Part shown: positions 3,539 to 19,940 of the stretch, piece by piece
Numbering within the stretch: position 1 is the first letter of the stretch
Layout of the letters: each line of letters starts with the position of its first letter
NCBI GenBank assembly: GCA_048882385.1
Contig: JBHLRQ010000015.1
Location: 1 to 28,632 of the forward strand
Reading direction: 5' to 3'
Length of the DNA stretch: 28,632 bases
Source: Candidatus Thorarchaeota archaeon
GTDB taxonomy: Archaea > Asgardarchaeota > Thorarchaeia > Thorarchaeales > Thorarchaeaceae
The notes under the pieces: generated by a model
Databases searched by the model: none
The model's input: the letters and a program-made list of their open reading frames with translations, nothing else
Told to the model about the DNA's origin: nothing
Translations under genes and position numbers: made by a program

Positions 3539-3892
3539 ATGCATGTGCCAATCGATAGAACTTTTCGTGTTAGTTGGAGAATTACAGGTCATCACGAAGG
3601 ACACCCTGTGTGGCAATCTTCCAATGATGACACAAGAGAGATACACGGACGTACAGTTGGAGTTGATTTATCATTATGTTTTGGTTGTGACAAGTGCATA
3701 ACTGCATGCCCAACGAATGTTTTTTCATATTGGACAGATAGTGATGAACGAGTTGTGGTAGATCCAATACGTGAATCCGATTGCATCCTTTGTCTGATTT
3801 GTGAAATTGTATGTCCAGTTGAAGCCATCAGTATTGAAAGAGAGGGCGGTTCAGAGGATACCCTCAAATCTTTATTGCGAGGCACTCAATAA
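3539..3892 (+). CDS. zfx: Zinc-containing dicluster ferredoxin (Sulfolobus/Thermoplasma Zfx type)
   Basis: N-terminal extension PIDRTF...HEGHPVW...IHGRTVGVD with Zn-ligand His residues and the Asp of VDP; two CxxCxxCxxxCP motifs (CFGCDKCITACP, CILCLICEIVCP). Confidence 0.85.
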   Translation: MHVPIDRTFRVSWRITGHHEGHPVWQSSNDDTREIHGRTVGVDLSLCFGCDKCITACPTNVFSYWTDSDERVVVDPIRESDCILCLICEIVCPVEAISIEREGGSEDTLKSLLRGTQ

Positions 3893-14594: not shown

Positions 14595-16370
14595 TTAATC
14601 TTCAAGAACTGCTCTTATCCTAATAAGACCCGTTCCAATGCTTTTTTGCTTGACAATCCTGAATTTCTTCAGACCTCCTGTACGATTTACATGAGGACCT
14701 CCACAGAGTTCCATGCTGAAATCGCCCACTGAATATACAGATACTGTTTCTCCATAGTTTTCCTTGAAGAAAGCTAGAGCTCCAGTTTCAATCGCTTCAT
14801 CATAAGGCATGAATTGCTGTTTCACCTCAACATCCTTACTAATCACATCATTCACTAGATTCTCGACTTCTCTGATCTCATCTTGAGTCAGTTTCCTTGA
14901 GAAGGTGAAATCAAAACGCAAACGCTCTTCTGTGATGTTGCTCCCGTTCTGGGTTACCTCATTCCCTAGGACTCTTCTCAAAGCCGCCTGAAGAAGATGA
15001 GTTGCAGTGTGAAGCTTAACTATTTTCTCACTGTGTTCAGCCAAGCCGCCCTTGAACTTGCCTTGAGTTGCAGTTCTTGATATTTCACGATGTTCTTCGA
15101 ACTGCTTTGTAAACTCATCCATATCAATCTGTATTCCTTTCTCTTCCGCAAGATCCCTCGTCATTTCAAGTGGAAGACCGAAACTAGTGAAGAGAAGAAA
15201 GGCATCGCCTCCTGTAATGGTCCCTGTGTCATTGTAGATTTTTTCGAATCTCCTGATAGCTTTGGTGAGAGTCTTTCTGAACTTGACTTCTTCTGCTTTG
15301 AGACTGCTCATGATGAACTCCTTGTTACGCTTGACCTCACCATATAGGTCTTTGAACATATCAATAACAATGTCCGCAAGCGAATTCATGAAGCCTTGTC
15401 CGATTTCAAGTCTGTCTGCGCTATGAATTGCCTTTCTGAGTAGTCTTCTTACAATGTATCCCTGTTCCACATTGGAAGGTCCAATCTTCCTGTCATCTGC
15501 CATTATCATTACCGCTGACCTAACATGATCGACGATTATCCGAATGAGTCGATTGTCCTGTTCAGAGAACTCCTCTCTTCTTGAGAGATCCTTGACATGT
15601 TCAATCAGAGGAATGAAGAACTCGGTATCGAACACTGTTGGGACTCCCTGGAGCATAGCAAGAGTTCTCTCAACACCCATTCCAGTGTCAATACTATTCA
15701 TCTTCAAGGGCTCATAAGATCCGTCGTCGAGCTTTCTATAGCTCATAAATACGTCATTCCATACTTCAACAAAGTGGCCGCAGTTACACCCTGGCCGACA
15801 GTCTGGACCACATTTTGGAATCTCATCCACTTCAATGAACATCTCCGTGCAGGGTCCACATGGTCCTGAGTTTCCTGCAATCCACCAGTTGTCATCCTTT
15901 CCCAAGAAGTAGATCCTTTCATCTGGGATACCAACTTCTTGCCAAGCTTCTGCTGCTTCAATATCCCTAGGAGAGTCATCATCACCTGCAAAAACTGTGA
16001 CAGACAGCTTTTCCGGATCAAATCCGAGGTATTTCTTTGATGTGAGAAACTCATAGCTCCAGATGATTGCATCTTTCTTCCAGTAATCACCTAGACTCCA
16101 ATTTCCAAGCATCTCAAAGAATGTGAGGTGAGTTGTATCACCAACCTCTTCAATATCAGTTGTGCGAACGCATTTCTGAACATTGGTCAGTCGTTTTCCT
16201 TCAGGATGGGGTTGTCCCAATAGGTATGGCACTAACGGGTGCATACCTGCGGAGGTGAAGAGCACTGTAGGATCATCCTCTGGGAACAATGATGCTGAAG
16301 CTATGACTGAGTGTCCCTTGTCTTTGAAGTATTTCAAGTACATTTCTCTCAGTTCTTCAGCTTTCATCAA
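14595..16370 (-). CDS. alaS: Alanine--tRNA ligase, short (about 590 aa) form with editing motifs but no C-Ala domain
   Basis: LFTSAGMHPL, HLTFFEMLGNWSLGDY, GPCGPCTE, IDTGMGVER, DHVRS, HTATHLL, ELCGGPH; GAGGTGA RBS. Confidence 0.96.
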   Translation of the reverse strand: MMKAEELREMYLKYFKDKGHSVIASASLFPEDDPTVLFTSAGMHPLVPYLLGQPHPEGKRLTNVQKCVRTTDIEEVGDTTHLTFFEMLGNWSLGDYWKKDAIIWSYEFLTSKKYLGFDPEKLSVTVFAGDDDSPRDIEAAEAWQEVGIPDERIYFLGKDDNWWIAGNSGPCGPCTEMFIEVDEIPKCGPDCRPGCNCGHFVEVWNDVFMSYRKLDDGSYEPLKMNSIDTGMGVERTLAMLQGVPTVFDTEFFIPLIEHVKDLSRREEFSEQDNRLIRIIVDHVRSAVMIMADDRKIGPSNVEQGYIVRRLLRKAIHSADRLEIGQGFMNSLADIVIDMFKDLYGEVKRNKEFIMSSLKAEEVKFRKTLTKAIRRFEKIYNDTGTITGGDAFLLFTSFGLPLEMTRDLAEEKGIQIDMDEFTKQFEEHREISRTATQGKFKGGLAEHSEKIVKLHTATHLLQAALRRVLGNEVTQNGSNITEERLRFDFTFSRKLTQDEIREVENLVNDVISKDVEVKQQFMPYDEAIETGALAFFKENYGETVSVYSVGDFSMELCGGPHVNRTGGLKKFRIVKQKSIGTGLIRIRAVLED

Positions 16371-16574: not shown

Positions 16575-17066
16575 CTAAACAAGAATAAGACCTGAGGGAG
16601 TCATCCTATATCGCTTCAGTCTAGAGCTAATCCATGGATACTTCTCGATCCAATCCAAGAATCTATCATTTGAAATGATGTTCGAATCAAGCTCCTTTGA
16701 AAGCTGAATGATTTTCAGATCATCACTTGTTCTTCGTGATGCTTCAATAACATTAGCATTCGACATGAACTCGTTAAGTGTGGTTGGTCTGTCGATTTTG
16801 TGAATCAGAGCTGCAGAAACAACAAAGATTGGCTCAAAACCTGTGCTTGTTAGACTACGGTAAGCAAGAATGAGATTTTGTGCTTTTGGCACTCCTTTGG
16901 ATGACATATAATACGCCACATTGTTTCCGTCAACAACTACGGTTTTCTTTGGAACCCCCACTGTACGAGTCCGCGTTTTTCGTAGATTACACTTCTGGAT
17001 ATGGTCGTCGAGAGTATCTCTACTAAATAGTCGATCGCAGTATGGACAACGGACTCGTTTTGGCAA
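16575..17066 (-). CDS. NYN/PIN-fold ribonuclease (Zc3h12a/Regnase-like) with N-terminal C2HC zinc finger
   Basis: CPYC-x11-HxxxC finger; VVVDGNNVA, SDDLKII, IISNDRFLDW catalytic Asp motifs; GAGGT RBS before TTG. Confidence 0.88.
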   Translation of the reverse strand: MPKRVRCPYCDRLFSRDTLDDHIQKCNLRKTRTRTVGVPKKTVVVDGNNVAYYMSSKGVPKAQNLILAYRSLTSTGFEPIFVVSAALIHKIDRPTTLNEFMSNANVIEASRRTSDDLKIIQLSKELDSNIISNDRFLDWIEKYPWISSRLKRYRMTPSGLILV

Positions 17067-17165
17067 GGATTCATACCTCAGATACCTAAACCTTCAGAAT
17101 TTTCATTTTCGTATAAAGATGCGGTTCTACATTTAAAAGGAAATAATTGGGGATAACTAAAGCTA

Positions 17166-17173
17166 TTTATCTA
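17166..17173 (+). promoter_or_regulatory. Putative TATA box for the candidate small RNA
   Basis: TTTATCTA beginning 27 nt upstream of G17193. Confidence 0.45.
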
Positions 17174-17192
17174 AATAAAGCAAAATTGATTT

Positions 17193-17258
17193 GGCGTTTC
17201 GTTTCCGCGGTGTCGTCCTCCCGGCGGCCGTAAGACGGAGGCGAACGCCTCCTTATTT
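17193..17258 (+). ncRNA. Candidate structured small RNA (about 60-65 nt), family unknown
   Basis: 70% GC island in an AT-rich intergenic gap; 5' and 3' ends pair (GGCGTTTCGTTTCCG / CGGAGGCGAACGCC, G-U pairs work on + strand only); inner hairpin with UCCUCC loop; followed by TTATTTTT. Confidence 0.55.
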
Positions 17259-18542
17259 TTACAAGACTAAGCCAAGTAGAATCAGCCAACCTGTAGCGAT
17301 TGCAAGCATGATTAAGGCAAGTGGCGAGGCAATCTTTGCAAAATCTTTCATTGTTATTGGTTTCCCTTCTTTTTCTGCAAAAACAAGAGCAAGTATATTT
17401 GCAGGAGCTCCTATTGGCAGAAGGAACCCACCAACATTAACAGCGAATATTAGAGCCACTGGAAGGATTGGACTCACTAAAGCAAACTCTGCTGCAATTG
17501 GAGCCAAAACAGCAGATACAGGTATGTTATCAATGACTGCAGAAAGAATAGCTGGCACCCATGTCATGAAGAATATACCAAGAATTAGATTTCCTCCAAT
17601 AAGACTGTCAATCCCTACTCCAATTGCATCAATAACGCCTGTGACGTCTAATGCTGCTACAAGGCCAAAGAGCCCAATGAGGAAGAAGATTGTTCCCCAG
17701 TTCACACGTTTGAGAATCTCATCCACCCATTCTCGAGCAAGTATCAAAAGCCCAGAGGCTACTGTGATGGCAATCAGAGCTGGTTGAAGTGGGAGCGGAG
17801 TTAATCCAGGACCTATCGTAAAACCAAGTACTAGGATTAACATTGCAACAATTGAAAGGTAGAAGTCTGTTCTGGATCGAATCATATATTGTGGATTTAT
17901 CAAAAGCATCTGTGAAACAAGATCTTCTTCTGAAGGCTGTAGCTGGTCCTTAAAGACTCGTAGAAGGAATGGAATTGAAACTATAAAGAGAATGATTGAG
18001 AGTGGTAGTAATGTTGCAAACAAGAACCCCGGATCGACACCTGCTTCGTTGGCAATGAGAAGATTGGGCACGGCACCAACAATTGATGAAACTGATGCAA
18101 AGTTACAGGTCACAGCCTCGGAAATCAAGAATGGTTTGAAATCAATATCAAGTGCTTTACAGAGTTCGATTGTCAATGGGCCCATTATTAACATAGTAGA
18201 AGTAGTATCAAAGAACAATGAAATTACAAACACAAACCCAAGTAAAGAAATGAATAACTTCTTTGTATGACCTTGAGTTGGCCTAGTTAAGCTCAATGCT
18301 AGGAATTGAAACATACCTGAGGAGGCTGCTATTGTTACAATGATGAACATTGATGTAACAAAGAGAATTGTTGGCCACTCGATGTGTTCCACAATAACAG
18401 AAAATGTACCCTGTCCAGTGACCCATAGTGCGAACCCGGCAGCCCCCATGCCCAGAAGAGCTGTAGCTGTTCTGTTTACTTTCTCGGATGATATTGCGAT
18501 GTAGGTGACCACAAATATGAGAATGATTATTTCTGCAGCCAA
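17259..18542 (-). CDS. ArsB/NhaD (IT superfamily, SLC13/P-protein-like) permease, paralog 2
   Basis: EKVNRT, IEWPTILF, SSGMFQFLA, VNWGTIFFLIGLF, SAVIDNIP, NVGG..LPIGAPAN. Confidence 0.88.
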   Translation of the reverse strand: MAAEIIILIFVVTYIAISSEKVNRTATALLGMGAAGFALWVTGQGTFSVIVEHIEWPTILFVTSMFIIVTIAASSGMFQFLALSLTRPTQGHTKKLFISLLGFVFVISLFFDTTSTMLIMGPLTIELCKALDIDFKPFLISEAVTCNFASVSSIVGAVPNLLIANEAGVDPGFLFATLLPLSIILFIVSIPFLLRVFKDQLQPSEEDLVSQMLLINPQYMIRSRTDFYLSIVAMLILVLGFTIGPGLTPLPLQPALIAITVASGLLILAREWVDEILKRVNWGTIFFLIGLFGLVAALDVTGVIDAIGVGIDSLIGGNLILGIFFMTWVPAILSAVIDNIPVSAVLAPIAAEFALVSPILPVALIFAVNVGGFLLPIGAPANILALVFAEKEGKPITMKDFAKIASPLALIMLAIATGWLILLGLVL

Positions 18543-18548
18543 TTCTCA

Positions 18549-19940
18549 TCAAATCCCAAATAAAACTTGAAGCAGCACAAGGTATCCACTTCCTATTGCT
18601 AGATGAATAACGCCAAGCAATGTACCAATCTTGACGAATTCTATGAATGGAATAGGATCATGTTGTTCCTCAGATAGTCCAATGGCTACCATATTTGCTG
18701 GAGACCCAAGAGGAGTGAAAATATACCCTCCGATGTTTACCGCAAAAATCAGTGCCAATGGATTTCCAAAAGTTGCAGCAATAGGCGCAAGAACAAGTGA
18801 AACAGGAAGGTTGTCGAGGAATGCTGACAGCATTGCAGGTATCCAGACAAGAAAAACAGTTGCAAATATTGATCCTTCTTCAATGAATCCCGAGATAGCA
18901 CCTCCAAGTGCATCAATCAAGCCCGTTATGTCTAATGCACCAACCAAACCGAAAAGCCCAACCAAGAAGAAAACTGTAGGCCAGCCAATTCTGTTAAGAA
19001 ATTCGTTCGCTCTTTCATGTGCTAGTAGCAGCAAGAAACCAGCTATTAGAAGTGCTACCATCGCAGGAGTCAGTCCTAGAGCTGGACCGAATGCAAAGCC
19101 CACAACAAGACTAATTATAGCTACTGATGAAATGTTGAAGTCCCATCTGTCTTTAATCATAGTTGCGGGATCAATTGAGAAGACTGCATCAGCTCTGTGC
19201 TCTTCAGTATATCCAAATGATGAACTATACCATCTTAGTAAGATTGGTAGACTGACCAGAAATAGAATTATTGAGAGCGGCATAAACGTAACGAATAGGA
19301 AGCCAACATCTAGATTAACATCTGGGTGACTGGCAATAACCAAGTTGGGTACTGCACCTACAATGGATGGAATCGATGAGAAATTACTAACTATCGCCTC
19401 TGAAACTAAGAATGGTTTGAAATCAACCTCGAGTGCTTTGCATATCTCAATTGTGAGAGGTGCAGCGATGAGCATTGTTGAAACGGTATCAAAGAATAGA
19501 CTGATTCCTGACACAAAAATAAGAAAGATAATGAAGAGTTCCTTGTGGTCTCCTTCGCTTCGCGCTGCGATTCGAAGAGCGATGTATTGGAAAAGACCTG
19601 ATGCGGCAGCGACTGAAACTATTACGCTCATCGCGATAATAAAGACAATAGTGTCCCACTCAACATGTTCAATGAGCGTTGCAAAAGTCACTCCACCAGG
19701 AATTTCAAGAGCAAGTGCAACGAATAACACTAAACCCGCTAAAGCTACTCCAAGAAGCGACATTGCAGTCCGATTTACCTTCTCTGTTGAAATTAGAAGA
19801 TATGTTCCGATGAAGATAACAATGACAGCTATTGGCAAATTTCGGTAGCTGATGACTAAGATGAGGGCAATTGTGGTCATTATCGCAATGAAGATAGTTG
19901 CAATGATTTCCCATCCAATCTTCCTCATATCAACAGTCAC
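18549..19940 (-). CDS. ArsB/NhaD (IT superfamily, SLC13/P-protein-like) permease, paralog 1
   Basis: EKVNRT, VEWDTIVF, ASGLFQYIA, IGWPTVFFLVGLF, SAFLDNLP, NIGG..TPLGSPAN. Confidence 0.88.
   Translation of the reverse strand: MTVDMRKIGWEIIATIFIAIMTTIALILVISYRNLPIAVIVIFIGTYLLISTEKVNRTAMSLLGVALAGLVLFVALALEIPGGVTFATLIEHVEWDTIVFIIAMSVIVSVAAASGLFQYIALRIAARSEGDHKELFIIFLIFVSGISLFFDTVSTMLIAAPLTIEICKALEVDFKPFLVSEAIVSNFSSIPSIVGAVPNLVIASHPDVNLDVGFLFVTFMPLSIILFLVSLPILLRWYSSSFGYTEEHRADAVFSIDPATMIKDRWDFNISSVAIISLVVGFAFGPALGLTPAMVALLIAGFLLLLAHERANEFLNRIGWPTVFFLVGLFGLVGALDITGLIDALGGAISGFIEEGSIFATVFLVWIPAMLSAFLDNLPVSLVLAPIAATFGNPLALIFAVNIGGYIFTPLGSPANMVAIGLSEEQHDPIPFIEFVKIGTLLGVIHLAIGSGYLVLLQVLFGI

Follow-up and report, generated by a model that had tools for sequence, protein, structure and literature searches.

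A Thorarchaeota small RNA with a conserved C-rich tip, predicted to repress translation by pairing with ribosome-binding sites

In bacteria, CcsR ("cuckoo") of Rhodobacter and RsaE/RoxS of Firmicutes are small RNAs whose C-rich loops are aimed at G-rich Shine-Dalgarno (SD) regions of mRNAs. Archaeal examples come from Methanosarcina. There, sRNA162 masks ribosome-binding sites (RBSs) through a single-stranded linker that carries an anti-RBS sequence (PMC3510493), and sRNA154, which uses a loop, and sRNA41 are also described as masking RBSs (PMC5867862). Here we describe a short hairpin with a C-rich tip in a 28,632-nucleotide (nt) stretch of DNA from a Candidatus Thorarchaeota archaeon (contig JBHLRQ010000015.1; "the window" below means this whole stretch). 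The element, at positions 17193 to 17255 of the + strand, probably specifies a small RNA acting in trans to repress translation through RBS masking, a reading to which we give a rough probability of 0.6.

An initial annotation of this site had proposed a stand-alone + strand small RNA, either acting in trans on SD regions or representing a new structured class. Its GC island, TATA-like box, T-run, and stem with a bulged U were all recovered at the same coordinates by our own count and fold. The island (17193-17252) contains 42 G+C in 60 nt, and 60-nt composition windows gave values of 0.52 to 0.63 across it versus 0.27 to 0.30 immediately upstream. The TATA-like box TTTATCTA (17166-17173) lies 27 nt ahead of 17193, and the T-run TTATTTTT is found downstream of the hairpin at 17253-17260. 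No credible + strand gene follows, as had also been stated: the flanking genes, encoding a NYN RNase and a CitMHS permease, both lie on the - strand. The parts of the locus are as follows.

17160..17173 (+): putative promoter of the small RNA, with a purine-rich stretch resembling a B recognition element (AACTAAAG starts just upstream) and the TATA-like box CTATTTATC
17193..17255 (+): small RNA of type A, 63 nt long in its covariance-model matches, which are full length and score 82.2 bits (model R1) and 73.1 bits (model R2)
17193..17207 (+): 5' strands of basal stems P1 (17193-17198) and P2 (17200-17207), with the bulged U at 17199; pairs with 17236-17249
17215..17227 (+): conserved tip, or "seed," GUCCUCCCGGCGG, with the loop CUCCC at 17218-17222; (nearly) invariant in 58 loci
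17236..17249 (+): 3' strands of P2 and P1, assigned from the fold and covariation
17250..17260 (+): 3' tail and T-run, a likely oligo-U terminator; the tail reads UCC here and mostly ACC or GCC in relatives

The same layout was seen in related genomes. In most of the 58 loci, an A/T-rich TATA-like box is located at about -33 to -23 relative to the first G; in 31/58, A or T fills at least 9 of its 11 positions. ACTAAAnCTATTTAA is conserved within the genus at the promoter, and a pyrimidine or T-rich stretch lies 3' of the stem in most loci. A conserved box so placed, with a T-rich end, is compatible with the separate transcription that an RBS-masking small RNA would have. The segment 17193-17255 (+) appears to be a gene of its own, with a predicted start at the G about 27 nt past an archaeal TATA box and a predicted end at the oligo-U tract. 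A dispersed repeat, like a repetitive extragenic palindrome or a miniature inverted-repeat element, had been named in the initial annotation as another possible origin; the 83-nt stretch is present in a single copy in the window's genome.

The + strand folds at -29.9 kcal/mol into 6 bp, the bulged U, 8 bp, and then an inner hairpin. The fold has a z-score of -2.5, with 2 of 200 shuffles equally stable, versus a z-score of -0.7 and 43 of 200 shuffles for the - strand, and we therefore consider the strand asymmetry real. Many pairs are U-G, which the opposite strand would read as C-A, so the fold is possible on the + strand only, in line with what had been noted from the G-U pairs of this one sequence. 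For the inner hairpin, comparison refined the register: rather than GUCG/CGGC with the loop UCCUCC, the comparative fold prefers GUCGUC/GGCGGC with the 5-nt loop CUCCC. Both registers are possible because of the GGCGGC repeat.

Conservation and covariation were both found. In an alignment of 53 distinct sequences that was fitted to the covariance model, which favours the structure, standard pairs occupied 94.2% of cells, versus 33 to 65% when the 3' partners were slid by 1 to 3 columns. Two-sided changes occurred in 11 of 20 pairs, a count matched by 0 of 500 shuffles. They were confined to the basal stems (4 of 7 pairs in P1 and 7 of 7 in P2), and the tip helix GUCGUC/GGCGGC showed one-sided changes only, from U-G to C-G. 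An independent MAFFT alignment of the genus gave 95.7% paired cells and 4 double-change pairs, with slid controls at 33 to 60%. The tip GUCCUCCCGGCGG is near-invariant across the 58 loci, while the stems vary, as does the 3' linker between the tip and P2, in both sequence and length. The 3' end varies as well. Its resemblance to the anti-SD tail of 16S rRNA, which the initial annotation had pointed out, is present here as CGCCUCCUUA but is shared with only a few other genomes; GCCACC or GCCGCC stands in most relatives, and some copies depart to ACU, UUU, or CCA. We propose that the basal stems serve only as a scaffold and that the tip is the invariant element that is presented.

These data also bear on the idea that the segment is no functional trans-acting RNA at all, being instead a DNA site or cis element of the divergent promoter of the NYN gene and the downstream alaS gene, or a terminator of the permease gene. 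The element does lie between two genes and near the NYN promoter, and CCGGGAGG and its complement would look alike to a DNA-binding protein. However, only one strand accommodates the compensatory changes and G-U pairs, the - strand fold is no better than shuffles and has no T-run after it on that strand, and the element is preceded at a fixed distance by a TATA box of its own. It is also kept in 9 loci without the permease, which disposes of a function as permease terminator only, a possibility raised in the initial annotation. Further, the target motif described below keeps its distance to a start codon and not to a TATA box. We regard this explanation as highly improbable.

To determine how widely the RNA is distributed, covariance models were built from 21 copies (R1, alignment A2) and 58 copies (R2, alignment A3). 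By blastn, copies with 79 to 92% identity were present in most genomes of the same genus. R1 found a full-length copy in 57 of 86 family genomes, representing 12 of 16 genera, with one copy per genome except for one genome with two. In a sample of the phylum, R2 matched 20 of 26 family genomes and 0 of 124 genomes from 26 other families; many genomes without a model match are incomplete. Diverged copies with the same tip, below detection by the models, were found in two more genera, g5 and g31 (genomes G062 and G065).

The tip also occurs on a different scaffold. A sibling RNA gene of about 100 nt (G000:C7:12767-12867, - strand; locus L326:768-868) has its own TATA box, a fold of -33 kcal/mol, and the tip GUCCCUCCCGGCGG. 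This locus was first met as an apparent target site at G000:C7:12799, which is the antisense of the sibling RNA gene. Blastn detected the sibling RNA in 50 of 86 family genomes, which represent 7 of the 16 genera, and a 21-nt segment of its tip was 100% identical in distant genera. Genera g33 and g6, in which the type A RNA was not found, have RNAs with the sibling tip on a further scaffold that is not beside a NYN gene. Since the sibling carries a near-identical tip on another scaffold, it is the tip rather than the scaffold that is kept. Judged from these comparisons, the RNA appears to be a Thorarchaeota-wide conserved small RNA whose tip, and not its scaffold, has been retained, on at least two scaffolds. 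An exact complement of the sibling tip was also seen in the leader of an 89-amino-acid (aa) gene (G000:C25:20086).

The genome was also searched for sequence complementary to the tip. Blastn searches with the RNA had returned several leaders in antisense before any hypothesis was formed (for example, G013:C4:113362 and G006:C149:3345). Exact complements of 11 to 13 nt, kept across genera, were found at three genes and in one hairpin loop. The three genes are as follows.

G000:C37:17380-17895 (-): gene for a tetratricopeptide repeat (TPR) protein of 171 aa with a Cys-rich tail; complementary site in the leader
G000:C102:8218-8421 (-): gene for a zinc-ribbon protein of 67 aa; complementary site in the leader
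G000:C36:5026-5334 (-): gene for a thioredoxin-like protein; complementary site across the start region, with an uncertain start codon

At the TPR and zinc-ribbon genes, the complement of the tip lies 7 to 10 nt before the ATG. The core CGCCGGGAGGAC occurs three times in the genome outside the RNA gene, versus 0.12 occurrences expected from base composition. Of 29 readable leaders of TPR orthologues, drawn from two genera, 27 had GCCGGGAGGAC and 22 had the complete 13-mer CCGCCGGGAGGAC (both counted by eye); the pattern was also matched no more than 80 nt ahead of the TPR orthologue in genera g7, g8, g31, and g6. In the zinc-ribbon leader, CCGGGAG was present in 46 of 60 orthologues from 14 genera, and 9 of the 14 exceptions differed only by C-to-U changes that could still pair with G of the RNA (again by eye). 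The thioredoxin-like gene has ACGCCGGGAGGA in 8 genomes of the genus and CCGCCGGGAGGAC in G067. Searches with CGCCGGGAGGA gave about 230 matches family-wide versus 79 for the backwards control, and 98 versus 14 within the genus; these counts include the RNA genes themselves.

The flanks of the leader sites match the small RNA and not the 3' end of the 16S rRNA of the genus, GGAUCACCUCCU. The initial annotation had its CCUCC motif aimed at SD sites; what is targeted would be the extended motif (C)CGCCGGGAGGAC of a handful of genes, and not SD sites generally. RNAduplex energies on full-length sequences were uninformative, as shuffles reached similar values, and co-fold differences were used in their place. 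The net gain on co-folding was -18.8, -16.1, and -8.4 kcal/mol for the three leaders, versus -2.1 and -3.1 kcal/mol for the NYN and alaS leaders. A strict co-loss test, in which the motif should be lost where the RNA is lost, dissolved: the apparently RNA-less lineages hold diverged or sibling versions with the same tip. Two features of the TPR leader were seen alongside. A second conserved hairpin (UGGUUGUC...GACAACCA) stands just upstream of the target motif (G000:C37, about 17920-17960, - strand; loci L236-L251), and the target motif itself is able to form a GUCC/GGAC mini-hairpin.

Because exact complements stand at these leaders, the RNA most likely represses translation of the genes concerned. 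The complements, located at the RBS regions of conserved genes, support what had been proposed for the site, namely a stand-alone RNA that would act in trans on SD regions or form a new structured class. In the mechanism that we propose, the C-rich loop CUCCC would make the first contact with GGGAG in the target mRNA. Pairing would then spread to 11 to 13 bp as the short, G-U-containing tip stem opens. The resulting duplex would cover the SD sequence (GGAGG) and compete with the 16S rRNA 3' end, and initiation would be blocked for a small regulon of the TPR, 67-aa zinc-ribbon, and thioredoxin-like proteins. Pairing in the cell is thus predicted to lower translation of each target.

Several observations weigh against RBS masking. 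The excess of sites within the genome is modest, and reversed-sequence controls give scattered 11- to 12-mer matches in other windows. Both the RNA and its targets are near-invariant, and the changes seen are wobble compatible only, with no true compensatory ones. Eight of the 13 seed bases are paired in the RNA's own tip stem, with only CUCCC exposed, and the GGAGG part of the motif is simply an SD site. For the thioredoxin-like gene, the start codon is uncertain, and repression rather than activation is assumed. Finally, masking of RBSs does not account for the near-constant neighbourhood of the NYN RNase gene and alaS, seen in 55 of 58 loci.

The RNA could instead bind a protein and not mRNA, either as a decoy that mimics the CCUCC-containing 16S 3' end or by titrating a protein that binds C-rich sequence. 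The leader motifs would then serve something else, for instance by forming local hairpins that adjust translation. The tip does hold CCUCC, the anti-SD core of the 16S 3' end of the genus; invariance over 13 to 19 nt exceeds what many base-pairing seeds need; and the motif of the TPR leader, GUCCGCCGGGAGGAC, is partly self-complementary (GUCC/GGAC). We nevertheless consider protein binding very unlikely, as it leaves unaccounted the exact complementarity of the leaders beyond GGAGG with flanks unlike 16S rRNA, the mostly wobble-compatible C-to-U exceptions in the zinc-ribbon leader, and the presence of one tip on two scaffolds.

The genes around the RNA are the following.

16575..17066 (-): NYN gene, for a protein of 163 aa that combines a C2HC zinc finger with a Zc3h12a-like NYN RNase domain (Pfam PF11977, 8.3e-14; PF13913)
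14595..16370 (-): alaS, downstream of the NYN gene, for an alanine-tRNA ligase that is short and of bacterial type (NCBIfam NF002436, 819 bits)
17259..18542 (-): CitMHS-family permease gene by family search, convergent; a frequent but not obligatory neighbour

The link between the RNA and the NYN gene was not noticed in the initial annotation. The NYN gene, which has a TATA-like box near 17111-17118, lies 130 to 240 nt from the RNA on the opposite strand, in divergent orientation, in 55 of 58 loci from 12 genera. Two of the other three loci are cut by contig ends, and the third, L052, has no NYN gene in the 640 nt available. The arrangement was also found at the diverged copies in G062 and G065 and in 50 public Thorarchaeota records (model E value of 0.00023 or better). 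Across 14 orthologues, neither the catalytic D/N residues nor the Cys/His ligands vary, and the nearest solved relatives are KHNYN and ZC3H12A/C (E = 0.0015 to 0.07), which act on stem-loop RNAs. No NCBIfam model names the protein. It is confined to Thorarchaeota, with distant homologues (26 to 39% identity) in Heimdall and Hod archaea and one weak match in Rhodopila; the public loci that encode it are assigned to Candidatus Thorarchaeota, some being labelled Promethearchaeota or Hermodarchaeota.

The alaS gene follows the NYN gene in most loci and is the only PF01411 match in the genome. Its product, of 591 aa, lacks the archaeal C-terminal part and is encoded in an apparent operon behind the NYN RNase gene. 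The permease gene is absent from the 9 loci mentioned above, which retain both the RNA and the NYN gene. In the window, two CitMHS/ArsB-like permease paralogues stand in tandem (17259-18542 and 18549-19940, - strand), and in a relative (L046) a second permease gene takes the place of alaS behind the NYN gene.

This neighbourhood raises the question of whether the RNA is a dedicated partner of the NYN/zinc-finger RNase, as its substrate, its antitoxin-like inhibitor, or its guide to mRNAs, with complementarity serving cleavage and not exclusion of the ribosome. The constant divergent placing, maintained even at the diverged copies while the permease comes and goes, would fit such a partnership, as would the retained catalytic Asp/Asn residues and zinc ligands and the kinship with enzymes that act on stem-loops. 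Yet NYN orthologues without an adjacent RNA are found at at least 9 Thorarchaeota loci and at all 10 Heimdall/Hod homologue loci. Conversely, the sibling RNA and the g33 and g6 versions carry the same tip at loci without NYN, and L052 holds the RNA with no NYN gene nearby. The two genes could also have stayed together through common descent and a common divergent promoter region. We therefore view a dedicated partnership as unlikely. Quite unlikely, too, is a combined version in which the RNA and the NYN RNase form an Asgard module for RNA-guided mRNA decay, with the tip selecting mRNAs by 11- to 13-nt pairing at the RBS and the nuclease, related to eukaryotic ZC3H12A and KHNYN, cleaving the bound transcript. 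Were it true, such guided decay would be an archaeal forerunner of the eukaryote-type mRNA silencing that depends on stem-loops or guides, and the sibling RNA would widen its targets.

Translational repression by RBS masking remains the reading that we prefer, and the RNA was compared with other known kinds of RNA. No match to Rfam 15, whose families include the Hgc RNAs, CcsR, and RsaE, was found in the whole window at gathering thresholds, in agreement with the new structured class considered at the outset. On 17000-17400 with E values up to 10, the sole match was a chance one to a coronavirus 5' untranslated region model (17.4 bits versus a gathering threshold of 124.9). ARAGORN found no tRNA or tmRNA gene in the window. 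C/D box small RNAs have a C box (RUGAUGA) near the 5' end and a D box (CUGA) near the 3' end; both boxes are absent from 17193-17255 (read by eye), and no Rfam snoRNA model matched. H/ACA small RNAs form a hairpin with a pseudouridylation pocket and a kink-turn (K-turn) or K-loop, and have an ACA box 3' of the stem. In the 58 loci, the tail is RCC and not ACA; a tandem G-A/A-G motif was not seen, and the 3' linker differs between loci in both sequence and length. In type III toxin-antitoxin systems, the RNA usually consists of repeats and is co-transcribed with an endoribonuclease gene that it always accompanies; here the RNA is a single copy and not a repeat, is divergent from the NYN gene and not co-transcribed with it, and is missing beside some NYN orthologues.

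Three further candidates were rejected. A tRNA-like minihelix charged by the neighbouring alanyl-tRNA synthetase was suggested by the 7-bp basal stem followed by mostly a purine and CC, and by alaS in the adjacent operon. It was ruled out on three counts. A G3-U70 pair is missing, position 3:70 being C-G, U-A, or U-G; there is neither a cloverleaf nor a D, anticodon, or T arm, in agreement with the ARAGORN result; and the tail varies and does not encode the A of CCA. An RNase P RNA substitute that works with the NYN protein, after the idea of a protein-only RNase P, was ruled out by a normal archaeal RNase P RNA (164 bits) elsewhere in the genome, which also has a signal recognition particle RNA. 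An rRNA fragment or mimic was rejected because CCUCC is all that the RNA has in common with the 16S 3' end of the genus; the assembly of this genome contains no 16S gene.

Complements of the tip were also seen in two noncoding settings. A conserved noncoding region of contig C105 contains two successive hairpins, the first GGGAGC...GCUCCC and the second with a loop, CGCCGGGAGGAGC, that is a complement of the small RNA tip (G000:C105, about 3600-3660, - strand, L318; also L299, L302, L306, L307, L309, L311, L312, L314, and L316). This second hairpin has a loop of 13 to 15 nt and a stem that covaries among 10 genomes of the genus, and the region had no Rfam match. Its role could be that of a target, of a sponge, or of a partner RNA. 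In one genome of another genus, eight exact copies of CGCCGGGAGGA are arranged in tandem, one every 15 bases, at G066:C113:42560-42675; these may be a coding repeat or an array of decoys.

Asgard archaea are the closest known relatives of eukaryotes, and in a literature search of limited scope, no Thorarchaeota or other Asgard regulatory small RNA was described together with targets. A short RNA with three conserved candidate mRNA targets, each with an exact site of 11 to 13 nt, and with a sibling RNA offers a concrete case that is testable in vitro, with no need for a cultured host. The case shows that regulators can be sought in the GC-rich islands of AT-rich Asgard intergenic DNA, and that predicting targets from their conservation across genera works in metagenome-assembled genomes. 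That the RNA is fixed beside a Regnase-like RNase gene hints at a link between small RNAs and eukaryote-type nucleases.

Compared with the bacterial RNAs, the likeness lies in C-rich loop motifs (CCUCCUCCC, UCCC) and in sibling copies that share the loop motif. CcsR and RsaE/RoxS are often dependent on Hfq or another chaperone and have several loops per RNA, whereas the RNA described here has no Rfam match and so is no member of those families, and its predicted pairing extends to 11 to 13 specified bases. With sRNA154, sRNA41, and sRNA162 of Methanosarcina mazei, it shares an archaeal origin, transcription of its own and action in trans (both predicted here), and an exposed anti-RBS sequence. 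It differs from them in having no similarity in sequence or model (no Rfam match at E values up to 10), in belonging to Asgard archaea and not to the phylum of Methanosarcina, and in being a much smaller, single hairpin with a seed that lies partly in the tip stem. Its position is fixed beside a NYN RNase gene, and its function is a predicted one. It is a new RNA family that would work, as far as can be told, in the manner of a known kind.

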